From the IMG/VR virus record IMGVR_UViG_2541047845_000008: a stretch of DNA of 15,043 bases; one strand, 5' to 3'. Source of the stretch: a virus (taxonomy: Duplodnaviria; Heunggongvirae; Uroviricota; Caudoviricetes). Under the pieces are notes generated by a model, which did not search any database, was not told the DNA's origin, and was given only the letters and a program-made list of their open reading frames with translations. The translations under genes and the position numbers were made by a program. Within the stretch, counting starts at the first letter, position 1. Every line of letters begins with the position of its first letter. This document shows, in pieces, positions 166-15,043 of this stretch.

Positions 166-564
166 TTTAATTAAATAATTTGCACCACAAAAAGTGCCAA
201 AAATCGCAAAATGACTACACCAGTAACTACACCGTTCGGTGCACTGTATGAAACAACGTGGAACAAATAGACACAAGAAATATACAGGCAGATCATCTTT
301 CCAGGGGGAAGCGCACCAATTCATGAGGGGCGTTGCTGTCGATATGGGGATCTCCACCTACCTGGATTTTTTTCCGGTTAAACGTTAATCAGGCTGGTGG
401 GTTTTACCTGTTCTGTAGGAGTGGTCATTATGACCATCCCTTATATCGTCCGAATGCCGGACGAAGGCACACATCAACCGTAACGAAAATCGTTATGGTT
501 GCCTTGATGGTCTGCGTGGTCATTATGACCATTCAGCCAATGACCTTAATCAGAATTTTTCGCT

Positions 565-588
565 AAAAAATGACGTTGGTCACGTCAT
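565..588 (-). terminator. Putative rho-independent terminator ending the long leftward operon
   Basis: Palindrome TGACG-TTGGTCA-CGTCA at about 571-587, flanked on the plus strand by an A6 run (565-570) that reads as a U-tract on the minus strand. It lies about 70 nt downstream of the last operon gene (stop at 659). Stem is short, so confidence is modest. Confidence 0.35.
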
Positions 589-658
589 CCGGAAAGCACA
601 AAATCACGTCAATTTTTAATGGATGGTTAAACCGTCTTTATCTCGATGTCCGTACGTA

Positions 659-940
659 TTACGTACGCAGTCGTTCCGGCTTCTTCCAGTGGTACGTTAT
701 TTTCTCCTTCTCCCGATACATCTCCACGCGGCGACGGTAGGCCAGCAACTCAAGAACTCTGGTTCGTATGTTGCGCATATCCACGCCATTAAGTTCTATA
801 CCATCACGGCGCATCACCTCAGCAACAACACGCGCATAGTTTTCGGCTGTCACGCTGTCCGGCTGCGTGGCCTGTTCGTCAGCCTGCTGGCTGATTCCGG
901 CAACGCGGCGGATTAATCCCGTTATTTCGGCTTCTGTCAT
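659..940 (-). CDS. Hypothetical protein (93 aa), last gene of the packaging operon
   Basis: ATG at 940 preceded by a GAGGT Shine-Dalgarno; starts 14 nt after the TerL stop. No family recognised. Confidence 0.55.
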   Translation of the reverse strand: MTEAEITGLIRRVAGISQQADEQATQPDSVTAENYARVVAEVMRRDGIELNGVDMRNIRTRVLELLAYRRRVEMYREKEKITYHWKKPERLRT

Positions 941-953
941 GCTGCTGACCTCA

Positions 954-2615
954 TTACACCCCGCTAAATTCTTCCAGTTTCTGGCGGTGGCTGTCGCTTA
1001 TATCAAAAGCAAAATCCTCATGCTCTGCCTGGAATGTACCAAACGCCATCAGCGCCGCCACGCTCGGGTCTATCTTGTTCGGTGATTTTTTCTTGTTCGG
1101 CTTGATATTGGCGTTCGCGTCACTCTGCATCACGACGTTACTCATCGACCAGGACAACACCGGATCGCCACGATGCACAATCACCCTGCGGTTAACAAAA
1201 ACTTCGAACGATTTCGCCGCCGGACTGAATCTGAGGTAGGTTTGCGGGAACGGCTCCACCTCAAAACCTGCCCCCTGTAATTGCGTTCTGAGATGCGTGG
1301 CGTTCCACGTATCAAAGCCCACCAGCCTGATATTAAATTTCTCCGCGTCCTGCATGATGTCATCTCTGATCCGGTCGTAATCAATGCAGTCGCCAGGCGT
1401 TGTGCGTATCCAGCCCGCTTTAGCCCACTGACGATAGACAGCGCGGTTTTTATTGGCGGGGTTCTGTAGCTGGAACTCCGGCAGATAATGACGGGAAACC
1501 AGCATAATGGTTTTACCGACCGGAAAGGCATAGCACACGCTGGAAATATCGCTTGTGGATGATAAATCCAGCCCCGCGTAACACTCCTGGCCGTGTAAAT
1601 CTTCCTCCGTGAACGTTCCGGCGCACTCCGCCCATGCACCGTTACCCATCCACGGCGTAGCCCCCTGACACCAGATATTGAATCGCTTGGTGAGCATTTC
1701 CACCCACTGCGACGGAATACCCCGCGCTTTCTGGATGGTTGAGGCCAGTTTTTCACGATCGACGGAAACATCGATATTTGGATTCGCCTTTATCCACATC
1801 GCCGGATCGTCAACCTCGCTTTCATCATCCAGCTCGTAAATCAGAACGAACATGGATTCGTTCATCTCTTCACCATCCAGTATCTGACAGCAATAGTCAT
1901 AGTGTTGTTTACAGGCTGAAACAACGTTGCTCCCCGATGTGGTGATGGCAAATAACAGCCCCTCCGGACGCGCCCCCATCCCCATATCAAGTGCGGAATA
2001 AACCCCGTTGTCTGGGTGCAGGTGATATTCATCCACAATGGCAAGACTCGGGTTTGTCCCCTCAATGGTTGCCGCTTTTGCTGCCAGTGGCTTTAACAGG
2101 CTGTTGGTTTTCGGGTGTATCACCTTATGCGCCTGAATATTCACCCGCCTGCGTAACGGTCGGGATAAAAGGCACATCTGACGCGCATCATCAAAGACGA
2201 TCCGCGCCTGGTCACGGCTCACCGCTGCGGTGTAGATATCCTGCTGACCGTTCTCCATAATCAAAAACCAGTTAGCCAGAATCGCGGCGGTCGTGGATTT
2301 CGCATTTTTGCGCGGCACTTCGATAAAGGCGCTCGTGTATTTGCGCCGTCCGGTGGCCTTAACCTTAAAGCCGAGGATGCACGCAAAGGCGAACTGCTGC
2401 CACGGCTCCAGCTCAATGGGTCTGCCACGCATCGGCCCTTTTACGTGCGCGCACACCCTGGAAAAGGCAATAAACCGCTCCACAACCTCACGATCGAACG
2501 TGTAAAGGGGGCTTTCAAGGTCCGAAAAGTACCGTTTAACGGCCTGTTTCAGCCGTTTACAGGCCGGAATTTTGCCCGTTTTTACGTCTTCTGCGTACTT
2601 ATTCCAGGCGGTCAA
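954..2615 (-). CDS. Phage terminase large subunit
   Basis: 553 aa. N-terminus MTAWNKYAEDVKTGKIPACKRLKQAVKRYFSDL is typical of HK97-type large terminases, with an ATPase P-loop-like PRKNAKST and an acidic C-terminal nuclease region. Apparent TTG start at 2615 with GAGGA Shine-Dalgarno, overlapping the TerS 3' end by 17 nt. Confidence 0.9.
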   Translation of the reverse strand: MTAWNKYAEDVKTGKIPACKRLKQAVKRYFSDLESPLYTFDREVVERFIAFSRVCAHVKGPMRGRPIELEPWQQFAFACILGFKVKATGRRKYTSAFIEVPRKNAKSTTAAILANWFLIMENGQQDIYTAAVSRDQARIVFDDARQMCLLSRPLRRRVNIQAHKVIHPKTNSLLKPLAAKAATIEGTNPSLAIVDEYHLHPDNGVYSALDMGMGARPEGLLFAITTSGSNVVSACKQHYDYCCQILDGEEMNESMFVLIYELDDESEVDDPAMWIKANPNIDVSVDREKLASTIQKARGIPSQWVEMLTKRFNIWCQGATPWMGNGAWAECAGTFTEEDLHGQECYAGLDLSSTSDISSVCYAFPVGKTIMLVSRHYLPEFQLQNPANKNRAVYRQWAKAGWIRTTPGDCIDYDRIRDDIMQDAEKFNIRLVGFDTWNATHLRTQLQGAGFEVEPFPQTYLRFSPAAKSFEVFVNRRVIVHRGDPVLSWSMSNVVMQSDANANIKPNKKKSPNKIDPSVAALMAFGTFQAEHEDFAFDISDSHRQKLEEFSGV

Positions 2616-2955
2616 GCTCGTCCTCTTCTTCTGTTTCCGGTGGATTTTTACGGCGGCTTATCGGGTCAAAACCGAGCAAGGAGGCCATTTTTATCATCAC
2701 TCTTTCAGCGTCGGATTTTGCGCTTAATGCGGGGTTTCTGCTCTCGCCGCCCTGACTGTTAACAATGCTGAACCCGCGCGCCGCAAGGTCTGCGACGGCT
2801 TTCCGGTAAATGGAGTAGTTGACACAATACAGTTCCAGATTGCTCCAGTCGGCGGGGGTCAGGTCTCCCCGTTCCGCAAGCTGCCGCGATTTTTCCCGCC
2901 ACTGCTTCACGGCGATGTCATCCAGGTAGGCGGGGGCTTTCGGTGGTCTTGCCAT
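2599..2955 (-). CDS. Phage terminase small subunit (P27-family-like)
   Basis: 118 aa, MARPPKAP... N-terminus and acidic C-terminal tail; positioned immediately upstream of and overlapping TerL, downstream of HNH and the putative cos region. Confidence 0.8.
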   Translation of the reverse strand: MARPPKAPAYLDDIAVKQWREKSRQLAERGDLTPADWSNLELYCVNYSIYRKAVADLAARGFSIVNSQGGESRNPALSAKSDAERVMIKMASLLGFDPISRRKNPPETEEEDELDRLE

Positions 2956-3243
2956 GCTTATTTTTCGTCAGATTATTTTTCAAAAAATTCCCGTGCATAA
3001 AAATTTGAGGAGGCGTTCGGTGTCCGGCAGGGACGGTTTCGTCCTGAAAACCACCCCCACCCCCTCTGACGGCCTCACCAGCGATTGCGAAAACATTCCA
3101 TGACCTCGCGGTCACGGTCGGTTAATCGCTTCGCTGTGGTGCGTTCTGTGCGCCCTGTCCTGTTGGCTTTGTGCCCTGTCTCCTGTGTCTTCCATGCGTC
3201 ATGCTGCCTTATCAGTCCACGAATCAGCCTGTTTTGTTCCTGT
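2956..3243. other. Putative cos / terminase recognition region
   Basis: The only sizeable non-coding gap (about 290 bp) inside the packaging module, between HNH and TerS, where HNH-dependent cos phages of the HK97 type place cos. Contains palindrome GGACG-GTTT-CGTCC (about 3031-3044), a C-rich tract CCACCCCCACCCCC (about 3052-3065), and two near-identical pyrimidine-rich direct repeats CTGTGCGCCCTGTCC / TGTGCCCTGTCTCC (about 3146-3185). Confidence 0.35.
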
Positions 3244-3684
3244 TCAGTCATCATCGCCATACATCCAGTCGTTACGGTGTGCCGCCCGTTCTTCCTGCTC
3301 GCGATACATGCCCGCTTTACGGTTTGCTTTCGTGGCGGGATCTTCCCGCGTCGTCTTACGGTTGTGGCACGTCTGGCACAATGCCTGGTGATTCCACTCA
3401 GGCCAGAAGAGAACATCACCGCCACCATTGATGGGGATAATGTGATCCACCACAAAGGCTGGCGTATAAATACCCTCAGCCAGACAACGCACACATAACG
3501 GATTTTTTTTCAGGTACATGGCGCGGTATTTGTCCCACTGTCGGGAATACCCACGTGCGCGGCGGTGTCCCCGTCTGGCATCCTCTGCACGCCATGCAGC
3601 CCGCCTGTGCTCTTCACACTTGCCGGACTTCACGCGCTTATTACAGCCCGGCTCAGTGCATCGCCTTAATGGTTGCCACGGCAT
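3244..3684 (-). CDS. HNH endonuclease (terminase-associated)
   Basis: 146 aa with paired cysteine clusters (CTEPGCNKR..KC and LCVRC ... CQTCHNRK) and HNH-like motif VDHIIPINGGG ... WNHQALCQTCHN. Start codon overlaps the stop of the upstream connector gene. Confidence 0.9.
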   Translation of the reverse strand: MPWQPLRRCTEPGCNKRVKSGKCEEHRRAAWRAEDARRGHRRARGYSRQWDKYRAMYLKKNPLCVRCLAEGIYTPAFVVDHIIPINGGGDVLFWPEWNHQALCQTCHNRKTTREDPATKANRKAGMYREQEERAAHRNDWMYGDDD

Positions 3685-3980
3685 CAGTACACCCCCACAT
3701 CACGATAAACCGACCAGAGCATCCCTACAGCCAGCGGGATTTCTTTTGTGTCTGCATCCCCGACCGTGGCCCTGTATTCGTACAGTTGCGACACGTACAT
3801 CATGCAGCCAATCTTTATGGCTGGCGTGAACTCCAGCCCGTCATCAAAGCGCCTGCCGATGTGTTTCTGGCACACCTCAAGCGCGGCGGCGATGTATCCG
3901 CTGATTAACTGGTCTTCCTCATTGCCATCAATGCGGCAATGGAGTTTCACTTCTTCCAGGGTGATTAATTCTGCTGTCAT
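3684..3980 (-). CDS. Phage gp6-like head-tail connector protein
   Basis: 98 aa; N-terminus MTAELITLEEVKLHCRIDGNEEDQLISGYIAAA matches the characteristic LITLEE-K-HLRID...D-LI-.YI-AA pattern of gp6-like connector proteins. Overlaps neighbours at both ends. Confidence 0.75.
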   Translation of the reverse strand: MTAELITLEEVKLHCRIDGNEEDQLISGYIAAALEVCQKHIGRRFDDGLEFTPAIKIGCMMYVSQLYEYRATVGDADTKEIPLAVGMLWSVYRDVGVY

Positions 3981-4315
3981 CGTGGCGCACCTGTTTTACA
4001 AAGAATTTCCAGACGAGTCCTTTTACCGTCGGGAACGGGGGGGCCAACAATATCAAGCTCATTGCCGGAATAAGCCCCCGTGAGTACCCGTATCCGGCTG
4101 GATGCCGTAACATCCCCACGAAAACGGATCCAGACTCTTACGGTTGCCTGTGCCGTTTCTGCACCTGCGGTCATGCGTTCCCGTCCGCTGATCCCTTTCA
4201 CCTCCGCCCATACGGTGGCAACATCCTCCCATGTGCTTTTCATTGCACCGGAAGGGAGGCGGGAAAGTTTCGCGCTCATGATGACAATGCGATCCCTCAT
4301 GCTCCCCGCTCTCAT
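3977..4315 (-). CDS. Phage head closure / head-tail adaptor protein
   Basis: 112 aa; size, position after the portal gene and the motif VWAEVKGISGRE...TVRVWIRFRGDV resemble head-tail joining proteins. ATG at 4315 overlaps the portal stop. Confidence 0.7.
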   Translation of the reverse strand: MRAGSMRDRIVIMSAKLSRLPSGAMKSTWEDVATVWAEVKGISGRERMTAGAETAQATVRVWIRFRGDVTASSRIRVLTGAYSGNELDIVGPPVPDGKRTRLEILCKTGAPR

Positions 4316-5526
4316 GATTTGCCCTCTTTATCGTCCTTTACTTCGATCTCCTGTTTCCAGGCCTGGCTGAACTCATCGCCACCATCACGCGGCGATAATC
4401 CCTCACGTTCGCGGGCTTCGTTCGGGCACATAACGCCGGACTTGATGCCGCGTTCATAGGTGGCAAAGCGTTCGCCAGGTGTGGCCCGTAACAGGTCCGC
4501 GCTGTCAAACTCCACCTGATACCGGATACCAGGTACAGGCGAGGCCACCAGCAAAGCATTTTTTATCTGCTGCTCAAAGTTCGCCAGCCACGGGCGCATC
4601 GTCATGGTCAGAAACGCGCGGCTTGCCTCGCTGAAATTGCTGTAGGTGCTGTTGCTGTATTCCTGCAGAAAAATCGGCGAGACGTTGAACATTCGGGCGA
4701 TGTCTTCAATGGTGAAGCGACGGGAGGCCAGCCATTCAGCATCCTGGTTACTCATGCCAAGCTGCTGATAGCTCATACCCCCTTCAAGAATGGGCGTTTT
4801 TCCGGCGTTTCTGGCTCCTTTGTAGCGTTCCAGTGCGGCTAATGCCTGTTTGCCCTTCACGCCGTCCAGCCATTCGCCTGACGTGATAACCCCTGCTGCC
4901 ATCATGCCATCACGCATCACGCTCGCGCCGTGGCGCTGTTGGGCCAGCCCAAGCCCCAGCGATTCGCGGCAGATGGTCACAGGTGAGCGCCCCATAAAGC
5001 CGTCATCCGTGGAGTAACGAAGGTGGAGAACCTCCCACGGTAAATAGTTGCGGGTGTTTCCGCTGTAAGCGTCAGTGATGCGGTAACGCCAGTTATGTTC
5101 CCCTGTCTGCTCAACATTCACCGACTGCGGCGGGTAAGGGTGCAAAGCCACCGGAAAACCATCACGCCCCCACTGAATCACCGCATAAGCATTACCGTTT
5201 AACAGGCAGTGGCGGACCATCATTCGCTTAAACTGATAGGGCGTCTGCCACGCGTTCGGGCGCTCGTTGAGGATATGATCGACCGGATGAGAATCAAGCC
5301 ACTCGCGGGCCTCCTTCCCCTTCTCATTGCGTACCAGGTACAGGTAGCATGGCATAGTAGCCACCGCCTCAGAGATGACCGTGACGGCGTTCATGACGGC
5401 GGGGAGTGATTCCGCTGTCCCCGATGATACGTACTCACCCGCCCCCGTGTTCGATGTGCCAGCCAGCGCCATAAATTCATCCAGCGTAAGGCTGCGATGC
5501 TCTTGTTTTCGTCTGAAAGGCCACAT
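4312..5526 (-). CDS. Phage portal protein (HK97 family-like)
   Basis: 404 aa; length, position adjacent to the prohead protease gene and conserved portal-like core; acidic C-terminus. Confidence 0.85.
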   Translation of the reverse strand: MWPFRRKQEHRSLTLDEFMALAGTSNTGAGEYVSSGTAESLPAVMNAVTVISEAVATMPCYLYLVRNEKGKEAREWLDSHPVDHILNERPNAWQTPYQFKRMMVRHCLLNGNAYAVIQWGRDGFPVALHPYPPQSVNVEQTGEHNWRYRITDAYSGNTRNYLPWEVLHLRYSTDDGFMGRSPVTICRESLGLGLAQQRHGASVMRDGMMAAGVITSGEWLDGVKGKQALAALERYKGARNAGKTPILEGGMSYQQLGMSNQDAEWLASRRFTIEDIARMFNVSPIFLQEYSNSTYSNFSEASRAFLTMTMRPWLANFEQQIKNALLVASPVPGIRYQVEFDSADLLRATPGERFATYERGIKSGVMCPNEAREREGLSPRDGGDEFSQAWKQEIEVKDDKEGKS

Positions 5527-5527
5527 A

Positions 5528-6103
5528 TCACACCCCCGCTAAATCCGCCCACCAGCGGCGATTATCCGCGCGTGGCATTTTTTCGGGGTGCTGCTCATAC
5601 AGGGAACGGCGGGCCAGATCCACGCCGGAATCAGGGTAAGCCGGTACGGATGTAACGGTAATTTCGTACAGTTCCGCCACCAGCACGGTGCGCACGCATG
5701 GATCTGTTGTGGTATCCCATACATCCTTACGGGAACGAAAGCCAAAGCTCATGCCGGATATATCACCACGTTTAACCAGTTCGATAACGTCCCGCCCTGT
5801 GCTGGTATCCGGTGGGGTCAGTTCAAAGCGTAACCCTGTGTCGTCCTCTTCCAGTTTCAGCGTGCCGGAACGGGTGCGCCCCAGTAACATGCTGTGGTCA
5901 TGCTCATACAGGCCACGAACGTCATTACCCGCCGCCAGCCACTCACTGAACGCCCCCCGCTGGAATTTTTCGTAAAACTCACCCCATAGCAGATCAGAAA
6001 GGTTATTCCAGCGAACAACGTAACCCGTCAGCGTACTGGCTCCGCTGGTGGTGATTTCTGATGACCGGATTTCCATGCTCTTTTTCATATTTTTTTCACC
6101 CAT
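5528..6103 (-). CDS. Prohead maturation protease (HK97 family-like)
   Basis: 191 aa; lies between the major capsid and portal genes. Alternative ATG starts at 6088 (GGTGA Shine-Dalgarno) or 6076 are possible. Confidence 0.8.
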   Translation of the reverse strand: MGEKNMKKSMEIRSSEITTSGASTLTGYVVRWNNLSDLLWGEFYEKFQRGAFSEWLAAGNDVRGLYEHDHSMLLGRTRSGTLKLEEDDTGLRFELTPPDTSTGRDVIELVKRGDISGMSFGFRSRKDVWDTTTDPCVRTVLVAELYEITVTSVPAYPDSGVDLARRSLYEQHPEKMPRADNRRWWADLAGV

Positions 6104-6111
6104 AAAACACC

Positions 6112-6135
6112 AAAGGGGCTTTTTAGCCCCTTTTT
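6112..6135 (-). terminator. Hairpin with flanking T-runs between capsid and protease genes (attenuator/terminator)
   Basis: Perfect 6-bp stem GGGGCT / AGCCCC with 4-nt loop at about 6115-6130, with T-rich flanks on both strands, immediately 3' of the capsid stop at 6139. Confidence 0.45.
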
Positions 6136-6138
6136 CTG

Positions 6139-7308
6139 TTAATCGCCGTTTTTCATCTCGAGGACTTTTATCGCGCGGGAGTCAACAACCCCGCCGCCGA
6201 TGTATTTATCCGTGTGTACCTTGTAGAAGCCCGGCTCTGTAATGTTGTCCGGTCGGGTACGGATCCCCGTTTCATGGTCAACGATGAAATAACCGCGCTT
6301 AAAGTCACCGACAGCCAGCGGCGTTTTGCCTTTGCCGATGTCCGGCATACTTTCCAGGTAATAAACAGGACGGCCCAGCAATGTGTCAGGTGCGCCCTCT
6401 TTGAGGCTGTCACGCCATACGTAATCACCGCTCTGGTTTTTCAGCTTCTGCAATGCTGCCGCAGTGTTCGAGTTCATCACCCACACGGCGTTCTTACGGT
6501 ATTTCGCTTTCAGCTTGTAGAGGATGTCGATCAGTTCGTCCGCTGTAATGGCGTCGGTTGTTGTAACCATTTTTTCAATGGTGCCAAAGGCGCGGGCTTT
6601 GTCGTTGTTGGTATCACGGGTGTAATTCAGGAAACCCTTCGGCTTGCCAGTACCGTCACCATTTACAAAATCATCTTCTTCGGTCGTGGCGAACGTGTCG
6701 GCGATTTCAGACGATAACCAGCCCAGCACATCCACTTCTGAAAAATCCAGGATTTCCTGCGTGGTTTTCGGGTAGGCATAGATCGGGTTAAGTTTGATGC
6801 TTACGCGCTCAACTTTCGGGGTTTCTGTTTCGGTTCGCTTGTTGCCCTCAGTGCCACGCCCCACCGTTGCGCCACCTGTGGAAACCAGTTTCTGGTATTC
6901 GTTTGATTTCGCCGTTTTCACCGTCGCAATCATTCGCATGACGCTTTCATCACTCAGTAACCGCATAACCTCGCGATCAAGCTCAGGGATAACGGTATAA
7001 CCACCGTCCTTGCCGCCGTTGGTGGTGGTGGATAATGAGCGAACGTCACCCGTTACGATGTAGTTGCGAAGTTCTGCGGGGTCAGTGGTCTGGCTGGCTT
7101 TACCTGGCTTGCTGCGCTCTTCGTCGGCAACGGCTTCAAGGCGGGAAATGTCTTTATCGAGGGATTCAGCTTTAGCGCGTAATTCGTCAAATTTTGCGCC
7201 CTCGGCGTCGTTAAGGCTGCGGTTTTCTTTTTCCGCGTTCTCCAGCATGTCGCGCATCTGATTTTTGATGGCGGTTTTCTGCTGGCGCAATTCGATAATT
7301 CTCGGCAT
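6139..7308 (-). CDS. Major capsid protein, HK97 fold
   Basis: N-terminal coiled-coil delta-domain-like region (MPRIIELRQQKTAIKNQMRDMLENAEKENRSL...) followed by a capsid core. The ORF track extends to 7353 on a TTG; ATG at 7308 is the more likely start (389 aa). Confidence 0.9.
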   Translation of the reverse strand: MPRIIELRQQKTAIKNQMRDMLENAEKENRSLNDAEGAKFDELRAKAESLDKDISRLEAVADEERSKPGKASQTTDPAELRNYIVTGDVRSLSTTTNGGKDGGYTVIPELDREVMRLLSDESVMRMIATVKTAKSNEYQKLVSTGGATVGRGTEGNKRTETETPKVERVSIKLNPIYAYPKTTQEILDFSEVDVLGWLSSEIADTFATTEEDDFVNGDGTGKPKGFLNYTRDTNNDKARAFGTIEKMVTTTDAITADELIDILYKLKAKYRKNAVWVMNSNTAAALQKLKNQSGDYVWRDSLKEGAPDTLLGRPVYYLESMPDIGKGKTPLAVGDFKRGYFIVDHETGIRTRPDNITEPGFYKVHTDKYIGGGVVDSRAIKVLEMKNGD

Positions 7309-7558
7309 AAAAAAAAGTCCTGATGCAAAGAGGAAAACACCAGGACGCGGCAAGACTCACGGTACGAGAACAAAAAGAAATGCACACCGATGCAGGCTTC
7401 CCGCCTGTTAACGCTGATGAGATTAACAGGCGGGAAAATGGTCCCAGCGTCCTGGCAACAGTGGCGAGAATAACCACGGTTCGGGCCTGATAAAATAAGC
7501 CAGCCATGCCGCTGAACAACCACGAACAACCACGCACAAATAATTTACAAAAGCTGAC

Positions 7559-7584
7559 AAAAAAAGCCCTGGTTAAACCTGGGC
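7559..7584 (-). terminator. Rho-independent terminator after the replication/regulation segment
   Basis: Stem-loop GCCCTGG-TTAAA-CCTGGGC (one mismatch) followed on the minus strand by U7 (plus-strand A7 at 7559-7565), directly 3' of the gene ending at 7592. Confidence 0.5.
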
Positions 7585-7591
7585 TGGGCCA

Positions 7592-7852
7592 TTAATTAAC
7601 GTCTTCCGGTGGTACTGATTGCACTGTGCGGGGCTTCACCTTTTCCAGATATGCGATGAGCGCATCAATCTGTTCAGGACCAGCCGCCAGAATTTCACCG
7701 GAAAGCGTGCTGCGTAAAAAACCATGATGATCAACCCAGAATATCGCCCCCGCCGCCAGGTGCTGGCGATAACGCTCCGTTGTCGTGTGGGCCGGATGTT
7801 CAAGGCCGAATAATTCGCGGTGTCGTTTAATTTCCTCTGTGGTTACTGGCAT
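7592..7852 (-). CDS. Hypothetical protein (86 aa)
   Basis: ATG at 7852 with AGGGGG Shine-Dalgarno; overlaps the 3' end of the upstream PerC-like gene by 10 nt. No family recognised. Confidence 0.55.
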   Translation of the reverse strand: MPVTTEEIKRHRELFGLEHPAHTTTERYRQHLAAGAIFWVDHHGFLRSTLSGEILAAGPEQIDALIAYLEKVKPRTVQSVPPEDVN

Positions 7853-8100
7853 GTTTCCCCCTTTAATTTATCTAATCCCATTTCAGCATAAACACGATCA
7901 GCGGCTTTTTTAATATCGCTGAAATTGTCCGGCCCGAGTGCTGGCCTTGTCGATTTTCTGCAACATTCCAGCCGTCGCATCGTGATGTGCTCCCGTTCCT
8001 TGTCTGTCTCCACCAGTAGCATGACTTCACCCCATCGCGCCGACGCTCTCCGGTAAAAGCCTTTCGCCTCGAGTTCTTCCGCTATGCGGTCATGTACCAT
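7843..8100 (-). CDS. PerC-like transcriptional activator (85 aa)
   Basis: From ATG at 8100 (GAGGGTGA Shine-Dalgarno; the track's longer ORF starts on a GTG inside ssb). The motif MVHDRIAEELEAKGFYRRASARWGEVM ... C..C ... DNFSD ... MGL matches my recollection of PerC/Pch-family small activators. Not search-verified. Confidence 0.5.
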   Translation of the reverse strand: MVHDRIAEELEAKGFYRRASARWGEVMLLVETDKEREHITMRRLECCRKSTRPALGPDNFSDIKKAADRVYAEMGLDKLKGETCQ

Positions 8101-8110
8101 CGTCACCCTC

Positions 8111-8521
8111 TCAGAACGGAATATCATCACCGTAAGGGTCATCGCCTCCCGCTGGTGGCTGATTACCCTGTGTGCCTGTGGTCTTGCGTCGGCTCCCACC
8201 AGGTCGCGCCGTTCTGGCACTGATTACGCTGTCTGCAATAACCTGCCAGCCCTGCCGCGTTTCCCCGTTCTGTCCGGTCCACTGGCTGACCTGCATCGTG
8301 CCGGATACGCTGGCAACGTCGCCTTTTTGATGTTTAGCCAGGAAGTCGGCCTGCTTACCAAATGCCATCACCGATAGCCATAACGTAGCCTGCCCATCCT
8401 GCGCCTGACTACATGGCAACGATACCGCCATACGTGCCAGCGTCATTGGTGTGCCCTTGCTGGTCTGTTTTACCTGCGGGTCGTCCACCAGCCGCCCGTA
8501 AGCTGCTATCTGTGCTGTCAT
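8111..8521 (-). CDS. ssb: Single-stranded DNA-binding protein
   Basis: 136 aa; OB-fold-like core (AAYGRLVDDPQV ... W..V.AFGKQADF ... KGD.V.V.G ... W) and the hallmark acidic C-terminal tip ...GGDDPYGDDIPF. Confidence 0.85.
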   Translation of the reverse strand: MTAQIAAYGRLVDDPQVKQTSKGTPMTLARMAVSLPCSQAQDGQATLWLSVMAFGKQADFLAKHQKGDVASVSGTMQVSQWTGQNGETRQGWQVIADSVISARTARPGGSRRKTTGTQGNQPPAGGDDPYGDDIPF

Positions 8522-8775
8522 GATTCCACCTCTCCGGTTTTAACGTTGATGGTTGTTACCTGTTCCGCTTCGGCAATCTCCCGTTCTGTCAGCGTGGCAA
8601 AGTTTGCCGCCGCCGTGGTCATGAATGCGCTTATCAGGTCGGGATGTGCTTTCGCGTATCCTTCCCCCGTGTTGCGGTCGATGATTTTTATCGCCACTCT
8701 CAGCCAGTGCTCTGTAAGGTCAATGGCGCGGTTATGCTGCTTCTTCTGATTATTAAGTTTTCCTGATGTGCGCAT
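8518..8775 (-). CDS. Hypothetical protein (85 aa)
   Basis: ATG at 8775; stop overlaps the ssb start. Sits between the origin iterons and ssb. No family recognised. Confidence 0.5.
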   Translation of the reverse strand: MRTSGKLNNQKKQHNRAIDLTEHWLRVAIKIIDRNTGEGYAKAHPDLISAFMTTAAANFATLTEREIAEAEQVTTINVKTGEVES

Positions 8776-8823
8776 TTTTATTTTTACCCCCTCGTTTAAA
8801 AAGTTTTGAGTTGTGCCTCCCCT

Positions 8824-9050
8824 TGTCTACCTTATCTACCTTACTGGCTCTCATGCCAGTAATGGCGCGGCTTTCAGCGGGGTAGAGTGCTTTTATCCAC
8901 TATCTACCCCGTATCTACCTCCCTGTCTGATTCAGGTAAAATCAGGTAGAGAGGGTAGATAGTAGGTAGACAGTGAAAAAAGGCTGTCTACCTAAGTTAA
9001 TATACTGAATTAAATGTATTTTTCTTTACTCAGGTAGACAGGGTAGACAG
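8824..9050. repeat. Iteron array and AT-rich segment: putative replication origin
   Basis: Eleven copies of an octamer with core TCTACC / GGTAGA in a non-coding stretch just 3' of the primase gene. Forward copies (TGTCTACC or TATCTACC) at about 8824, 8833, 8901, 8912, 8985; inverted copies (GGTAGA-CA/TA/GA/GT) at about 8881, 8945, 8954, 8965, 9033, 9043. An AT-rich spacer (about 8994-9030) is flanked by inverted iterons. Confidence 0.7.
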
Positions 9051-9063
9051 CCATTGCAAAAAA

Positions 9064-10818
9064 TTATAAAAACGCGTCGCAATCGTCTGTTGTTATTGCG
9101 TTAGTCTGCGTTACTCCCTTAACTTTCCGCGTAATATATTCATGTCCGTAAACTTTCGCGGCTGGCTTCATAGCCTTGCCAAAGTCATTTACGTTTAGCG
9201 GTTTGCTCCTGCCTGCGTATGCCATAAACGCCAGATAGACGCGGTAAAGGCTGTTCCTGGTCGTGTACTTCACTGAATCGCCACCGCCCCCCATCATCAG
9301 GCCGCGCGCTTCCTCCAGAAAATTCAGGAACTGGCAAAACTCAATAACCGGATCCGTCTGTTGCTTTATTGCCAGTGCTTCATCACCGTCACGCTGTTCC
9401 AGTAGTAAAGCCCGTGCCTTCTCAGGGTCGGTAAAGTTCGCCAGCAATCGGCGGATAATGACAGGGATTTCAGCCGCAATCTTTTCCGGTAGCTCCCTGT
9501 CTTTTTCGGCCTCACTGACGATATTGTCGAAACGGAAAATTACGCGACGACGTGACACACCTCCGGCCCGTTCGGTGAATATCATCGGATTGTTATTGGT
9601 TGCCAGCACCACCGCCCTGATTACCGCCGTAAAACGCTTTTCATATTTCGGGTTAATTTCCACGGGGTCGCCGCCCGTGATTTTCTTGATGCCCGTTCCT
9701 TCGCCTGTATATTTCGGCTGGTCAGCCAGGACGATAAGACGACTCCCGACAACCTGCGCACGTCCACCAGCATCATCAAGCGATGTCATTTCAGCGCTTA
9801 CCGTGTTCTGTTTCCCTGCCAGAAGGCTGGCTATGTGCGTGAATGTACTTTTACCGCTCCCGCCATCTCCGGTGGCCTCAATAAACATCTGCCAGTCGTA
9901 CCGGTTCGCCATAATCATGTACAGCGCGGCACATATACGCATCATCTTGCGCGGGTCTTTTCCGGCTGCGTGCTCAAGCCATTTATGAAAGTTTGGCGCG
10001 TTATCGCGGATGTTCTCCCCTGGTGCTGGTGGCGTGTACTCAATGCCGTTGTGCGTGGTGATCCAGTTCTCCGGCGTGTGCGGGGAAAATTCCCCCGTTT
10101 TCAGGTCAAGCGCACCATTGGCGAACGGCAGCAAATCGCCGGACGGCTCGCCCATTGGTTCGGCAATAACTTTTAACGCTTCCACGGCGTTATTGATTAC
10201 GCGCTTGCTGAAAGTGGCCCTGTGCTCTGAATAGATCGCCACCATTTCGCGGCTAAGTTCCATTGTGCTGACCGGACACCATACCCCGCCGCGCCATACG
10301 TGAACGATTTCACTTTCAGGATGTACGCAAACGCCATCAAAGCGATCGGCAAGCAGCTGCGCGCGCTCACTGTCCGCCATCTGCGAAAGTTGCGCCTTTT
10401 GCTTTACCGGAAGCTCAATGACCAGACCATCAGAAAGATTCTGGCGCTCACGGGCCAGATATTCGCGCCAGTTCTCCACCTTCTGACCGTGCATACCCTC
10501 AGGATAAAAATTTGCATCCTGTACGCCTGCCGCCGCCAGCTTCTGGCCAATCGCCTTTATCATTACTGGCGCAAGATATCCGGCCCTGAATATGCGCACG
10601 GATTTTCTGCCTTCCGGCACAATTTGCAGCTTATCCAGTTCTGATAACTGCTGCTCCCCAAGCCACACAGGAGGCTCATTATCTCCGGCCATACGCGCAT
10701 CATGTTCCTGCCATTGTTTCGCGTGTGCCCAGGCATCACTACCCGCAAAAATAATGACTTCTGTTCCTTTGTGTTTTATGCCGCGTGACTGCTGTTTTAC
10801 GTTCGGTGCCAGTTTCAT
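9064..10818 (-). CDS. DNA primase/replicase, P4 alpha-like family
   Basis: 584 aa with Walker A GDGGSGKST and surrounding NTPase motifs; architecture resembles satellite primase-helicases. Its ATG overlaps the stop of the upstream small gene (ATGA). Confidence 0.85.
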   Translation of the reverse strand: MKLAPNVKQQSRGIKHKGTEVIIFAGSDAWAHAKQWQEHDARMAGDNEPPVWLGEQQLSELDKLQIVPEGRKSVRIFRAGYLAPVMIKAIGQKLAAAGVQDANFYPEGMHGQKVENWREYLARERQNLSDGLVIELPVKQKAQLSQMADSERAQLLADRFDGVCVHPESEIVHVWRGGVWCPVSTMELSREMVAIYSEHRATFSKRVINNAVEALKVIAEPMGEPSGDLLPFANGALDLKTGEFSPHTPENWITTHNGIEYTPPAPGENIRDNAPNFHKWLEHAAGKDPRKMMRICAALYMIMANRYDWQMFIEATGDGGSGKSTFTHIASLLAGKQNTVSAEMTSLDDAGGRAQVVGSRLIVLADQPKYTGEGTGIKKITGGDPVEINPKYEKRFTAVIRAVVLATNNNPMIFTERAGGVSRRRVIFRFDNIVSEAEKDRELPEKIAAEIPVIIRRLLANFTDPEKARALLLEQRDGDEALAIKQQTDPVIEFCQFLNFLEEARGLMMGGGGDSVKYTTRNSLYRVYLAFMAYAGRSKPLNVNDFGKAMKPAAKVYGHEYITRKVKGVTQTNAITTDDCDAFL

Positions 10819-11114
10819 TTTTTACCCCTGAATCCTTTAATCATGGTTTTCATCTTCTGAATATTGGCGCGTGCTTTCTCCCTGCTGGTGGGCACGTTAC
10901 GCGGTACGGCCTGCACAAGAGAAAAATCACGGTCGAACTGATAAACAGGCATCACGCAATCATATTCGTAGCCTTCACGACGGTAGGTTACGCGCCGTTC
11001 CTCCACGCCCTTAATCATTACCGTGCCGCCGTACTTATCGCGGTAAATATCACCGCGCATGAATTTAGTGCGAGTTTTGCCACTGGCAGTTAAGCCAGAA
11101 TATTTAAGTTTCAT
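10815..11114 (-). CDS. Hypothetical basic protein (99 aa)
   Basis: ATG at 11114; translationally coupled to the primase gene. No family recognised. Confidence 0.55.
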   Translation of the reverse strand: MKLKYSGLTASGKTRTKFMRGDIYRDKYGGTVMIKGVEERRVTYRREGYEYDCVMPVYQFDRDFSLVQAVPRNVPTSREKARANIQKMKTMIKGFRGKK

Positions 11115-11119
11115 TATTT

Positions 11120-11353
11120 TTATTCTCCGGTGTGGGGCGCTTTATACTGGTCGTGTAATGTCTCTATTTCCTGCAACTCATTTATTACAGGCTCAAGAAG
11201 CGTTATTAATGCCGTGACAATCCTTGATTTCTGTTTATCACGTTCATTATCTCCAAGCGTTTCAAGACATATGCGCAATATTTCCAACATATTTTCACTG
11301 TGAGAAAGTGCAAGAAATGCGCGGTCTATTGTTTCGTGGTAAATATCACGCAT
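11120..11353 (-). CDS. Hypothetical acidic protein (77 aa)
   Basis: ATG at 11353 with GGGGA Shine-Dalgarno, immediately after the stop of the upstream gene. No family recognised. Confidence 0.5.
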   Translation of the reverse strand: MRDIYHETIDRAFLALSHSENMLEILRICLETLGDNERDKQKSRIVTALITLLEPVINELQEIETLHDQYKAPHTGE

Positions 11354-11354
11354 A

Positions 11355-11576
11355 TTAATCCCCGTCCGTCGTTTTTCTTAAAATAACCTCTGTCACGAAA
11401 TCAGCATAATCGGCGGCGATATTCAGTACATCAAGCACCGTTGATTTATATTCTCTCGTGGAAAGTAAGAAAAAAGCCGCTCTAATAAGTTCTGGCATTG
11501 ACGAAAGCGCATCAGCCGCATCATCAGGAACGCCGGAAAATTCCTGTTTCAGGGAATTAAAACGATTATCACGCAT
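11355..11576 (-). CDS. Hypothetical acidic protein (73 aa)
   Basis: ATG at 11576 with GGGGGG Shine-Dalgarno; overlaps the upstream gene by 8 nt. No family recognised. Confidence 0.5.
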   Translation of the reverse strand: MRDNRFNSLKQEFSGVPDDAADALSSMPELIRAAFFLLSTREYKSTVLDVLNIAADYADFVTEVILRKTTDGD

Positions 11577-11934
11577 GTTTACCCCCCTGAATGACCTGAT
11601 AACCGCAACTGGTCAGCAACTCGATAAATTCCGGCAGTGTGCCGAAACAGCAATCATCACGCAGCCGTTCGCAGGATACCTCGACGCCGTTTTCGTAGTG
11701 ACTCACCATACATCCGGTAAAATGCAGATCATCATCGTGATGGCTCGTTGACGGCTTAATCAGTCGCGCACGTTCCGCCAGTTCCAGCAATGCTTCAACG
11801 CTTCCGGCAATTGCACCATCCGGCAGGTGATAATTACGCACTATGCGCCCGTTCTCCACATTGACCAGCAACTGCCCGGTAAATTTCTCGTCAAACTGAA
11901 TGCTGTTAAGGTCAGAAATTGACAGGTTATGCAT
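11569..11934 (-). CDS. Hypothetical protein (122 aa)
   Basis: Preferred start is the ATG at 11934, preceded by a perfect AGGAGG Shine-Dalgarno at 6-nt spacing (the track ORF extends to 11952). Cys/His-containing; no family recognised. Confidence 0.55.
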   Translation of the reverse strand: MHNLSISDLNSIQFDEKFTGQLLVNVENGRIVRNYHLPDGAIAGSVEALLELAERARLIKPSTSHHDDDLHFTGCMVSHYENGVEVSCERLRDDCCFGTLPEFIELLTSCGYQVIQGGKHA

Positions 11935-12151
11935 GGTGCACCTCCTGCACATCAGCCATGATAATTTTTCCGGCCTTATCCAGTGCCTGATCGGCTTTTA
12001 GCTGCACAAATGCTAAATAATGGAAGATGCATTCTGATTCTCTGGCTGCGTGTTTATGCGCCCTGTCAGCAATAACAGAAATATCAATCAGCGCATGCAT
12101 TAGCGTTATGATGGCTTCGGCGGCTGCGTCCGGACGGGTGTTATTGCACAT
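11927..12151 (-). CDS. Hypothetical protein (74 aa)
   Basis: ATG with GGAGG Shine-Dalgarno; overlaps the downstream gene by 8 nt. No family recognised. Confidence 0.5.
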   Translation of the reverse strand: MCNNTRPDAAAEAIITLMHALIDISVIADRAHKHAARESECIFHYLAFVQLKADQALDKAGKIIMADVQEVHHA

Positions 12152-12347
12152 GGCACACCTCCTGACGAATACGGGCAGCGAATACCATCACGCAGCCAGC
12201 CGGGGATTGCTGGCGTGCTTCCTGTTCGCTGGTGGCCTCAATGGTAATCACGCGCGGTTGTGCCGTGCTCAGGGCGATAAAACGCCAGATGTATTTATTC
12301 AGGTTGTGCGAATCCCGCCCTTGCGGGTGTGTGGTATGATTTAACAT
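12141..12347 (-). CDS. Hypothetical protein (68 aa), first gene of the leftward operon
   Basis: Only the 3' 68 codons of the 354-aa track ORF are plausible: ATG at 12347 with GAGGT Shine-Dalgarno, just downstream of the predicted leftward promoter. The rest of that ORF runs antisense through the regulatory region. Confidence 0.4.
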   Translation of the reverse strand: MLNHTTHPQGRDSHNLNKYIWRFIALSTAQPRVITIEATSEQEARQQSPAGCVMVFAARIRQEVCHVQ

Positions 12348-12443
12348 AGCTACCTCGATACTTTCGCTATCGTTGGTGGTTAGAAGCCCCGTTACTGCTC
12401 CTACAGTGCGGGGTTTCGTCGTTTCTACACCTTGCCTTAATAA

Positions 12444-12497
12444 GGTGTTGAACACCAATTTAAATCGAGGTGTTAAACACGTCAAGTGTTGAACACT
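12444..12497. promoter_or_regulatory. Three palindromic operator-like sites in the divergent control region
   Basis: GGTGTT-G-AACACC (12444-12456, perfect), GGTGTT-A-AACAC (12469-12480) and AGTGTT-G-AACACT (12485-12497, perfect); centre-to-centre spacing about 25 and 16 bp, between the leftward operon and the rightward small regulator gene. Confidence 0.6.
12457..12485 (-). promoter_or_regulatory. Candidate sigma70 promoter of the leftward operon
   Basis: On the minus strand: TTGACG (-35, plus 12485-12480), 16-17 nt spacer, TTAAAT/TAAATT (-10, plus about 12463-12457). Operator sites overlap the -35, spacer and start region. A rightward candidate (TTGAAC at 12489-12494, 17 nt, CATACT) lies back to back. 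Confidence 0.4.
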
Positions 12498-12546
12498 TAT
12501 TTTTTTTCCTGCATACTGCATTTGTTTTTTATGAAGGGTGCTCAAC

Positions 12547-12726
12547 ATGGCGACAAAAGCAGTAAACGCAAAATCACAAACAGTTGCGGCAAGGGTTCCA
12601 CATGAAGTTATGAACAATGTTGAGGCGGTAAAAATGCCCGGCGAAAGTACAGGGCAGTTTGTTACAGCTGCATTAAAGCGGGAAGTTGAATACCGCCAGC
12701 GTCGCAAGGCCAAAGAATCAGAATAA
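12547..12726 (+). CDS. Small ribbon-helix-helix-like DNA-binding protein (putative island regulator)
   Basis: ATG at 12547 with AAGGG Shine-Dalgarno (the track starts on GTG at 12538). The pattern beta-strand (QTVAARVP), helix (HEVMNNVEAV), turn (KMPGES), helix (TGQFVTAALKREVEY), then a basic tail fits the RHH (Arc/CopG-like) fold. Encoded next to the operator array. Confidence 0.5.
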   Translation: MATKAVNAKSQTVAARVPHEVMNNVEAVKMPGESTGQFVTAALKREVEYRQRRKAKESE

Positions 12727-12783
12727 TCACTATCAGCGCCGTGGCGTGAGGTACTCCGGCGCATTGCTTTACAGGTCAGTACT

Positions 12784-12993
12784 ATGAGCAAAAAACACCG
12801 ATCAGCAGATGAGATTTTTGCAGAACAACGAAGATTGCTTTTGCAAAGTATCATTTCACGCCAGCAAGAGAAGGCGCGAGCTAAACAAATGCCACCAAAT
12901 ACAGAACCAGCGCCTACAAGATTTGCGCTTGATGACTTTCTCGATAAACACCCCAGGGTAATGAAAGCAAACAAAAACCGCCCACCAGGCTGA
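12784..12993 (+). CDS. Hypothetical protein (69 aa)
   Basis: ORF downstream of the RHH gene on the same strand, followed by a strong terminator. No family recognised. Confidence 0.4.
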   Translation: MSKKHRSADEIFAEQRRLLLQSIISRQQEKARAKQMPPNTEPAPTRFALDDFLDKHPRVMKANKNRPPG

Positions 12994-13088
12994 TCACATT
13001 GCCCACCAGCCTGATAGCGGCTATCATCCCCGTGCTTATGTTTGAGATCACACACACAAACGGCGCAGCGGGTTATCTGTTCAGAAAG

Positions 13089-13116
13089 GCGGCTCCATTT
13101 CGGGGCCGCTTTTTTT
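13089..13116 (+). terminator. Rho-independent terminator of the rightward regulatory transcript
   Basis: GC-rich stem GCGGCTCC / GGGGCCGC (8 bp including one G-U) with loop ATTTC, followed by T7 (13110-13116). Confidence 0.6.
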
Positions 13117-13262
13117 ATTCCTGAAAAACCCCAATTTTGTTGTTTTTCAGTTTCACCAGGGCGAACGAATCCCCGCCCACGTTCTGGCGTATATTCAATC
13201 TTCATGGTTATAGCTCTGTGTTCAGATGATTGATGTGTGGCGGCTGCGTGCCGCCAGCGTGA

Positions 13263-13451
13263 TTAATGAACTGCCTTGCAGCTATCCTTCCAGGCCAGAA
13301 CCTCGGATAAAGACCAGCCAACGGAACGACCGCCAAGTTTACGACGTGATGGGAATTGTCCGGCCTTTTCCAGGCGGTAGCGACACGTACGGCTAAGGCC
13401 GGTTAGTTTTTCGCATTCTTTTTCACGTATAAACCGATCAGTGCTTAACAC
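13263..13451 (-). CDS. alpA: AlpA-family transcriptional regulator / excisionase-like protein
   Basis: 62 aa; motif EKLTGLSRTCRYRLEKAGQFPSRRKLGGRSVGWSLSEVLAW is the characteristic AlpA helix-turn-helix signature. GTG start with AAGGGGG Shine-Dalgarno; directly downstream of int. Confidence 0.85.
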   Translation of the reverse strand: MLSTDRFIREKECEKLTGLSRTCRYRLEKAGQFPSRRKLGGRSVGWSLSEVLAWKDSCKAVH

Positions 13452-13825
13452 TATTGCCCCCTTTCGTTTCTTAAAGAGTTATTTCGTGTTCTATTGCGTT
13501 GGGATGTGTCTGATTGTGTCAGGATGATTCAGAGTTGGCAAATGTTGAGGCCGTATGGTTTACAGAAAGAGGAATAATCAGGATAAAATCATTTAATTTC
13601 ATGTTAATACAAAGGCATAAAATATTGTTTCATGCCTTTTTTCTCGCTATTTAAAGAGTGATTCGCTAGTGTATAAAAAACCAGCAACACATTAAAAATC
13701 AGCTACTTATAAATCCGTACACTTTTTCGCCTCTTGTTCGTAGTTGTTCCGCATTGTTGCTCATTGTTGCACGTTGTATCTGTTCGCATATCCAGTATGC
13801 GCATACTGAAAAAACACGAAAAAAA

Positions 13826-15043
13826 TTATTTTCTTCTGGCTACTGGTAGCGTGGTTACGTTTTCATGTGTTCCCGCCAGTATCCCTAACCGCTCCGTCCA
13901 CATATCCAGCGCATTGCGTTTAGCATCCAGATAACGGGAATGATTATAAACTCGCTGCATTCCTGGCATCTGGTGGCCTGTAAGCTGCTCCACGACATGC
14001 GGATCAACGCCTAAATCGTTCAGCATGGTTGTAAAGGTGCGCCGGATGTCATGCAGTGACCAGTGAGGGTGATTAAGCCTCCTGTGCACTAATCTGCCGT
14101 ACTGCGATACGCTGGCCTCCTGTTTCACTTCCCCCAGCAATAAGCCCGTGTGCCTGTTCTGCTCCACCAGCTGCGTGACGAACGGCAGGATCGCTTCCGG
14201 TATGGGCCGGAATATTGCGACCTTCGTTTTGCTGTGCTCCTTCGGAACGGTCCATAGCATTTCCGTAAAATCCCACTCCCCGATCTCCGATAACCTCAGT
14301 TCTACCGTTCTGGCTCCGAAGACAATCAGGAGGCGGATTAACGCGACGTAGTAAGGGGAAAATATTTTTTTGTCCAGTGCCTGCAATAATTCGCCAAGTT
14401 CTTTGTTACTTAAGACACGTTCGCTTATATCCGGTTTTTTCCCAACGTCCGCCACGTTCAGATCGTCCAGAACGTTGCTGATTGCATAGCGCCGCCTACG
14501 GCAAAACTTAAGCGCCTGTTTGCACGCCTGTAGCACGAATCCGGCAGTAACAGGCGTTCGCTTTGCCACCTGGTCAAAACAGGCCAGCCAGTGCCGTAGC
14601 TCGCATTTATCCAGCGGCATAGCACCAATCTGCTGTATTACGTGATTATTAAGTCGCCTTTTCAGGGCGATATAATCCACGCGGTTTTCCTTTACGTAAT
14701 ACTCAAGCCAGTAGGTGAGCGCATCGCCAACCGTTACCGGCTTTAACGCTTCCTGTACGGTGTAATTAAGCTCATGACGTGGATTTTTCCCCTCTGCCAG
14801 CCATGCGCGACACTGGGCGGCTTTTTCCCTGGCTGATTTCAGGCTCAGATCAGGATAATTTCCCAGCTTAATGCGTTCCGGTGGTGCCCCCCTTCCCGTT
14901 CCGGCCCTGTAAGTGAAATACCAGGTCAATTTCCCTGATGTTAAATATTTCACGCTCAGGTTTCCGCCATCACTATAAAACGTGTTTTTCTCCGCTGGCT
15001 TACCATGAAGTTTCCTTAGCAAGGTATCGCTCAGTTTGTTCAT
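13826..15043 (-). CDS. int: Tyrosine recombinase, P4-type integrase
   Basis: 405 aa; N-terminal arm-binding-like region, core-binding domain, and catalytic C-terminus with R ... HDIRRT ... and YNHSRYLD (catalytic Tyr region). Its ATG is the last three bases of the window, so its upstream region and the adjacent att site are outside the window. Confidence 0.95.
   Translation of the reverse strand: MNKLSDTLLRKLHGKPAEKNTFYSDGGNLSVKYLTSGKLTWYFTYRAGTGRGAPPERIKLGNYPDLSLKSAREKAAQCRAWLAEGKNPRHELNYTVQEALKPVTVGDALTYWLEYYVKENRVDYIALKRRLNNHVIQQIGAMPLDKCELRHWLACFDQVAKRTPVTAGFVLQACKQALKFCRRRRYAISNVLDDLNVADVGKKPDISERVLSNKELGELLQALDKKIFSPYYVALIRLLIVFGARTVELRLSEIGEWDFTEMLWTVPKEHSKTKVAIFRPIPEAILPFVTQLVEQNRHTGLLLGEVKQEASVSQYGRLVHRRLNHPHWSLHDIRRTFTTMLNDLGVDPHVVEQLTGHQMPGMQRVYNHSRYLDAKRNALDMWTERLGILAGTHENVTTLPVARRK

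Follow-up and report, generated by a model that had tools for sequence, protein, structure and literature searches.

The stretch of DNA analyzed here (the window, 15,043 bp in its full length) carries a dense cluster of short repeats directly 3′ of a gene that had been labeled as a primase gene. This raises the question whether the cluster serves as an origin of replication, and if so, to which family of replicons it belongs. An origin of the kind found in satellite elements had been proposed at this place in an original prediction made from the sequence letters.

The iteron array downstream from the initiator gene

On its two strands together, the window has 12 copies of the hexamer TCTACC, while the expected number is 3.48 (sd 1.92), and the count of 12 was reached in none of 200 dinucleotide-preserving shuffles. 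All but one of these copies are located between positions 8826 and 9047, where only about 0.05 copies would be expected in 222 bp. The array at 8824–9049 consists of 11 octamers, five in the forward and six in the reverse orientation, with the consensus T(G/A)TCTACC and with two variants, which are TCTCTACC and ACTCTACC (Table 1). The count thus agrees with the prediction that eleven octamers with a TCTACC core are present in both orientations in noncoding DNA, and the proposed limits of the array, 8824–9050, proved accurate to the base. The array fills the 288-nt-long noncoding gap (8776–9063) that separates the 584-aa ORF encoding the initiator protein Pri-Rep, from its stop codon on, from the ATG of an 85-aa ORF; the last iteron is separated from the Pri-Rep stop codon (9064–9066) by 14 bp. 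Elsewhere in the window, more than one TCTAC/GTAGA sequence was found in no stretch of 250 bp, which means that there is only a single cluster.

The start-to-start distances between consecutive iterons are 9, 48, 20, 11, 33, 9, 11, 20, 48, and 9 bp, and this series makes the spacing of the array dyad-symmetric, with the left half being a mirror image of the right half, minus one site. The left half (8824–8921), when aligned to the right half (8943–9050) in its reverse complement, gave a score of 67, compared to 31.8 ± 6.8 for shuffled sequences, and a repeat finder detected the same dyad symmetry as the inverted repeats I1 and I2. The neighboring iterons that are 9–11 bp apart are separated by approximately one helical turn. 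The array was also compared with two other types of element. The arrangement of a classical RepA/π-type iteron plasmid origin, in which tandem direct iterons of 17–22 bp are accompanied by conserved DnaA boxes, was rejected, because the sites have a length of 8 bp and are present in both orientations. The reading as a noncoding RNA was rejected as well: a permissive Rfam scan returned only eukaryotic miRNA hairpin models with scores of 18–29 bits (19–29 bits at 8888–8985) against gathering thresholds of 76–150, and these matches are artefacts of the dyad symmetry of the array.

The two halves of the array differ in the DNA between their iterons. As expected from the prediction, inverted copies of the octamer bracket an AT-rich stretch, the A+T content of which is much higher than that of the window (48.8%), and which is presumed to be the DNA-unwinding element. 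This AT-rich spacer is present only in the right half of the array, and it contains a TAYTGWAT motif that is common to the window, P4, Serratia, and Morganella sequences. The corresponding spacer of the left half is G+C-rich, and within it there is a block of about 22 nt without an iteron, CCAGTAATGGCGCGGCTTTCAG, which was nearly column-invariant in an alignment of seven E. coli elements, while the flanking spacer diverged. In the window this block is overlapped by an 8-bp hairpin (8841–8848 with 8855–8862), which was not conserved among the relatives. Two 9-mers resembling DnaA boxes, TTATCCACT (8893–8901, +) and TTTTTCACT (8972–8980, −), each with one mismatch to TTWTNCACA, are placed at mirror positions beside iterons. 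As neither is kept in the relatives, they are probably mere T-tracts. Neither an IHF site nor a GATC sequence was found in the array region.

Table 1. Coordinates of the iterons, the initiator gene and the surrounding features of the window (position 1 is the first nucleotide of the window)
Feature	Position	Strand	Remarks
Octamer TGTCTACC	8824–8831	+	forward
Octamer TATCTACC	8833–8840	+	forward
Octamer ACTCTACC	8881–8888	−	reverse; single; core kept in the alignment of E. coli relatives
Octamer TATCTACC	8901–8908	+	forward
Octamer TATCTACC	8912–8919	+	forward
Octamer TCTCTACC	8945–8952	−	reverse
Octamer TATCTACC	8954–8961	−	reverse
Octamer TGTCTACC	8965–8972	−	reverse
Octamer TGTCTACC	8985–8992	+	forward; left edge of the AT-rich stretch
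Octamer TGTCTACC	9033–9040	−	reverse
Octamer TGTCTACC	9042–9049	−	reverse
Distal iteron pair, TGTCTACC and TATCTACC	8824–8840	+	9 bp apart; cores invariant in seven E. coli elements
Forward iteron pair, 2× TATCTACC	8901–8919	+	11 bp apart
Reverse iteron triplet, TCTCTACC, TATCTACC, TGTCTACC	8945–8972	−	spaced 9 and 11 bp
Rep-proximal reverse iteron pair, 2× TGTCTACC	9033–9049	−	9 bp apart
AT-rich spacer	8993–9032		40 bp; 82.5% A+T; between 8985–8992 (+) and 9033–9040 (−)
Conserved non-iteron block	8853–8875		inside the G+C-rich left spacer
Pri-Rep initiator gene	9064–10818	−	584 aa; P4 α homolog over helicase and origin-binding domains
C-terminal winged-helix domain, residues 488–576	9091–9357	−	PDB 1KA8, E = 1.1e-6; Pox_D5; weak RFX_DNA_binding match
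D5_N and SF3 helicase core, residues 153–470	9409–10362	−	Pfam; SaPI5 PriRep 7OLA
N-terminal 140-aa domain	10399–10818	−	TOPRIM-like fold
Tyrosine integrase	13826–15043	−	
354-aa ORF	12141–13205	−	C-terminal Icd-like cell-division-inhibitor domain
Small ORFs, DUF4222 protein, 584-aa Pri-Rep, array		−	in this order of transcription after the integrase
85-aa ORF, phrog_1231	8518–8775	−	first gene downstream from ori
SSB gene	8111–8521	−	next after the 85-aa ORF
PerC-family regulator, PF06069	7843–8220	−	E = 7e-36; two genes downstream from ori
Major capsid protein, prohead protease, portal, head completion protein, connector, HNH endonuclease, TerS, TerL		−	in this order of transcription after PerC
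Head and packaging genes	675–6309	−	terminase genes 954–2955

Correspondence to the EcCICFT073 origin and to P4 ori

The closest counterpart of the array is an origin that has already been studied. EcCICFT073 is a Gram-negative phage-inducible chromosomal island (PICI) with a pri-rep-ori replicon (Fillol-Salom et al. 2018, ISME J, PMC6092414), which is located at ycfD-phoQ, and one of the primers listed in the supplement of that study contains the Rep-proximal iteron pair. In that study, the DNA adjoining the initiator gene on its 3′ side was described as the origin, which was defined by two sets of iterons around an AT-rich region (PMC6092414). The CFT073 genome was used as the EcCICFT073 reference and compared directly with the window. 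The data showed that 280 out of 288 nucleotides of the gap were identical (97.2%), with no change in any of the 11 iterons and all eight base differences in the spacers, while the Pri-Rep proteins were 99% identical. The two islands also occupy the same roxA(ycfD)-phoQ site, and they differ in that the window contains a complete head and packaging module in place of the capsid and decoration genes of EcCICFT073.

The function of the EcCICFT073 region was previously analyzed using a thermosensitive plasmid, in which the cloned pri-ori segment allowed DH5α colonies to grow at 44°C, while the Δpri clone gave no colonies at this temperature (PMC6092414). The deletion of ori (pri-Δori) significantly decreased the numbers of colonies, with abolition not being reported (PMC6092414). 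When the primers from that study were located in the window, the end of the pri-ori clone corresponded to positions 8753–8773, and the end of the Δori clone to positions 9060–9080, which places the published deletion at approximately 8753–9059. Primer rep-2cNotI, which is one base off the CFT073 sequence and the window alike, was mapped by its two exact halves. These positions mean that the ori deleted in the published work is the whole gap, with every iteron included. The dependence of plasmid replication on both pri and ori was shown in the published experiment on EcCICFT073 sequence that is 97% identical to the window. The feature and its function are already known, as they were described and tested on essentially identical sequence in 2018. 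Together with the likeness to P4 and the repeats in relatives, both considered below, the near-identity to the tested ori supports the prediction of an iteron origin adjoining the initiator gene, and the array very probably serves an E. coli-integrated PICI as its origin of vegetative replication, an origin of the EcCICFT073 type. In the literature we found no Gram-negative PICI in which the start site of DNA synthesis had been mapped.

The octamers had also been likened to the iterons of satellite phage P4. The α protein of P4 binds type-1 repeats, in line with the GenBank annotation. The ori of P4 (GenBank X51522) contains six type-1 repeats TGTTCACC, of which three in reverse orientation are followed by one in forward orientation, an AT-rich stretch, and two further reverse repeats. 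In the right half of the array, the sites follow one another in the same order as in the P4 ori core and are oriented in the same way with respect to the initiator gene, and the two regions aligned collinearly. The gaps between the sites are 10, 11, 22, 43, and 10 bp in the P4 ori core, and 9, 11, 20, 48, and 9 bp in its window counterpart. The reverse triplet of the window corresponds to the triple type-1 repeat at 9310, 9320, and 9331 of P4, while the AT-rich spacer has its counterpart in the 35-bp stretch at 9361–9395, with 83% A+T. The iteron TGTCTACC itself shares six of eight positions with the P4 type-1 repeat, and the two central positions differ. The likeness to the iterons bound by α was thus found in these six positions and in the layout of the ori core, although the exact P4 type-1 iteron was not.

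A different role for the array is suggested by the organization of P4, where the cluster of iterons placed directly 3′ of the α gene is not ori but crr, which contains 10 type-1 repeats and acts as a helper in cis, while ori is 4.5 kb away. By analogy, the array, or at least its left half (8824–8919), could be a crr-like cis-acting enhancer, which would bind the initiator and, in the manner of P4, reach the actual start site by looping, with synthesis beginning outside the enhancer. The left half would fit such a role in that it lacks the AT-rich spacer and has the conserved G+C-rich block instead. However, both ori and crr are required in P4 as separate clusters, whereas the window has one compact dyad-symmetric array and no second iteron cluster within its 15 kb. 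Moreover, the P4 ori-core layout is complete in the right half, with the AT-rich stretch included, and the pri-ori fragment of EcCICFT073 drives plasmid replication by itself. We consider the explanation by a crr-like enhancer improbable overall; such a role is possible for the left half, while for the whole array it is unlikely, given the lack of a second cluster and the complete ori-core layout of the right half. The position of crr in P4 also bears on the expectation that the place next to the initiator gene is the usual one for a satellite origin. This expectation follows the rule of PICIs and SaPIs, and it is not the rule of P4.

The Pri-Rep protein and a proposed model of initiation

The similarity between the window and P4 extends to the initiator protein. 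Residues 141–573 of Pri-Rep were aligned by BLASTP to residues 324–756 of P4 α with 41% identity over 434 aa (E = 4e-113). The protein was also matched by the Pfam families D5_N, DUF5906 (SF3 helicase family), and Pox_D5, as well as by the NCBIfam model of the P4-family primase C-terminal domain, TIGR01613, and its residues 193–432 matched the structure of SaPI5 PriRep, 7OLA (E = 5e-15). The winged-helix domain at the C terminus, which matched PDB entry 1KA8 (Table 1), is presumed to be the reader of the iterons. The database title of 1KA8 is putative P4-specific DNA primase, and the entry contains the C-terminal chain of P4 α, which we take to be the origin-binding domain of this protein; it was reportedly described as such by Yeo and colleagues in 2002.

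The N-terminal part of the protein is different. While P4 α begins with a Zn-ribbon and a Toprim primase, the N terminus of the window Pri-Rep is a different domain of 140 aa. This domain did not match any Zn-ribbon or Toprim family even at E ≤ 1, and neither the EGxxD nor the DxD motif was found in it, while sequence searches with the N-terminal 150 aa returned no match in Pfam or PDB. When the profiles of Pri-Rep and P4 α were compared, the linker and D5_N were aligned, and the TOPRIM region was not. The TOPRIM likeness of this domain comes from a fold search only, with a modest Z. Zn_Ribbon_Prim and Toprim_3 were detected in P4 α and in the homolog from Morganella, but in neither the window protein nor the homolog from Serratia. 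Hence, the name of primase that was given to this gene is not supported, as the Zn-ribbon and Toprim families of P4 α were not detected. Because the EcCICFT073 pri-ori plasmid replicated in DH5α without other island genes, the simplest inference is that priming in EcCICFT073-type replication would be performed by the host, presumably by DnaG. The N-terminal domain of Pri-Rep also recurs in alleles of the protein whose helicase modules are of at least three unrelated kinds, and this distribution suggests that it could act as a shared adaptor, perhaps for a factor from the host or the helper phage.

How such a protein could act at the array is suggested by the studies of SaPIs. In these islands, the C-terminal winged helix of Rep binds 6–12 iterons located just downstream from rep, around a central AT-rich region (PMC9371898). 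At least two opposed iterons are present on either side of this AT-rich region, and the SF3 helicase loads itself (PMC9371898). The window system belongs with the SaPI Rep/ori systems in its number of iterons, their place after rep, the opposed iterons around AT-rich DNA, and an SF3 helicase whose C-terminal domain is a winged helix. In contrast, SaPI iterons are pentamers or hexamers of unrelated sequence, and SaPIs have a primase of another type, which is either separate or fused. Shared descent with SaPIs was demonstrated for the helicase core only, as no other homology was detectable.

The model considered here builds on what the sequence comparisons showed about how the array is organized and conserved and about the homologs of the protein, while the binding domain, the melting site, the direction of the forks, and the priming agent are inferred. 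It follows the mechanism shown for the SaPI Reps (PMC9371898). Upon induction, the 584-aa Pri-Rep would be made from the gene directly upstream of the array, and its C-terminal winged helix would read the TCTACC octamers, which would be on one face of the helix when adjacent, because of their 9–11-bp spacing. The opposed sites flanking the 40-bp AT-rich stretch would place Pri-Rep there, and the SF3 helicase core would then self-assemble on this stretch as rings, melt the DNA, and unwind it outward, with no need for a separate loader. Priming would follow, either by the host (DnaG), or by a putative activity of the N-terminal domain of Pri-Rep. P4 α has the same mechanistic features as the SaPI Reps.

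The relationship between the two systems was viewed differently in the study of EcCICFT073, where the organization of the origin was regarded as common to no other known replicon, and P4 and PICIs as having evolved independently (PMC6092414). The Pri-Rep proteins were described there as only distantly homologous to α and as differing in sequence (PMC6092414). Contrary to this view, the match of the array with the layout of the P4 ori core suggests that the replication modules of P4 and of EcCICFT073-type islands could have a common origin. A more specific scenario, for which we see somewhat less than an even chance, is that the EcCICFT073-type ori is a direct derivative of P4 ori. It would then consist of two units similar to the ori core, placed head to head beside a helicase and origin-binding protein of the P4 α type, in which a TOPRIM-like domain without catalytic activity took the place of the primase and host priming became necessary as a result.

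Conservation and exchange of the origin among related islands

In the alignment of the seven E. coli elements the mean column identity of the gap was 78%, and the relatives had 72–82% nucleotide identity. The TCTAC(C)/GTAGA cores were invariant in position and orientation across the E. coli relatives, while the spacers drifted. Two classes of iterons could be distinguished by their flanking bases, T-R-TCTACC and C-N-TCTACC, and in the C-terminal domain of the three proteins of the second class the sequence NDFG was changed to AEFS or ADFS. As the comparison involves two clades, a tie between these substitutions and the class of iterons is suggestive only. In E. coli VL40 (locus L002, 3077–6452) the Pri-Rep gene is broken by insertions of the IS110 and IS4 families and the iteron array is kept, with the last base of the core changed in four of 11 sites (three TCTACT and one TCTACA). 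These changes may reflect decay after the loss of the initiator.

More distant relatives have arrays of the same layout with other sequences. A scan of one genome per species returned three loci, which are enough for comparison, but too few for covariation statistics. In Serratia aquatilis, the Rep protein is 53% identical to that of the window, and about 11 copies of TGTTCAC are located directly after the rep stop codon (locus L010, 3268–3520), while in Morganella morganii, where Rep is 52% identical, about 11 copies of TGTTCAT are located at the same place (locus L011, 2863–3100). These iterons are P4-like. Since arrays are present in the relatives from E. coli, Serratia, and Morganella, the possibility that the repeats are absent from related elements, which had been named as evidence against an origin, did not hold.

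A further comparison is with Sp7 of E. coli Sakai, a capsid-forming PICI of the EcCIEDL933 type. This element shares with the window the integration site, the order of genes, and flanks that are 91–93% identical, but it has an unrelated initiator, a 710-aa DUF927/HTH_56 protein in which only the N-terminal ~140 aa are common with the window Pri-Rep. After the initiator gene of Sp7 there are 11 copies of TAACCCGCA, in both orientations and around AT-rich DNA (locus L008, 7234–7603), which makes it a second type of origin, without TCTACC, in the same position. A specific pair of a protein and its sites would be expected to be exchanged jointly. The iterons change along with the initiator in Serratia, Morganella, and Sp7, and these comparisons indicate that the initiator and the iterons are exchanged as one cassette.

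These data also bear on the possibility that the repeats are operator sites of a transcription factor, which would control the downstream operon of the 85-aa ORF, SSB, PerC, and the head genes. The array is indeed located directly upstream of the next gene, and the 45 bp preceding the ATG of the 85-aa ORF are highly conserved. However, a scan of 8600–9250 for promoters and terminators detected no σ70-like promoter and no terminator on the coding (minus) strand, with counts equal to those in shuffled sequences. The iterons follow the DNA-binding domain of the initiator rather than the genes downstream, which in Sp7 are about 93% identical to those of the window, while its iterons are different. 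The homologous sites of P4 are annotated as origin repeats. A role as operators is therefore very improbable. There is hardly any chance that the repeats are a packaging (cos/pac) site recognized by the small terminase of the island, since, even though short-repeat arrays can be binding sites of terminases and the island has its own TerS, TerL, and HNH proteins, the terminase genes are 6 kb away from the array, this terminase module is missing from EcCICFT073, where the array is the same, and cos was treated separately from ori (PMC6092414).

Gene calls, which were taken from the sequence of the window itself, showed that all genes are on the minus strand (Table 1), and no tail genes were found in the window. 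Judged by this layout, the element is a capsid-forming PICI (cf-PICI). The island takes up positions 156–15040, and the window spans nearly all of it. Some PerC homologs encoded by PICIs were previously noted to activate the LEE pathogenicity island (PMC6092414). Of 5426 complete E. coli genomes, 558 had the 451 bp around the array, in every case in the chromosome, and these were 100% identical in E. coli AR_0013; in the copies examined the element was located between roxA (ycfD) and phoQ. A search of a phage database with window positions 8000–11200 returned no match among deposited phage genomes. The replication cassette (7942–11576) is 97% identical to EcCICFT073, while the head and packaging genes (675–6309) and the integrase side are 92–93% identical to Sakai Sp7. 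When the whole window was compared with complete E. coli genomes, the best match was about 94.6% over 90% of its length, and as no complete genome exceeded this value, the island of the window is a mosaic variant. It combines a replication cassette of the EcCICFT073 type with a head and packaging module similar to that of Sp7/EcCIEDL933.

Taken together, the recognition of a satellite origin from sequence alone was correct, and it is now tied to a published functional test on near-identical sequence. The results go slightly beyond the literature consulted in that the layout of the origin matches the ori core of P4, the initiator is 41% identical to α, the cassette is exchanged, and recognizable primase motifs are lacking in "Pri". 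For the PICI family, these data mean that its replication module is clearly homologous to that of P4, both in the protein and in the layout of the origin, and that the initiator and the origin form a cassette that can be swapped between islands that integrate at one site and have their packaging genes in common.
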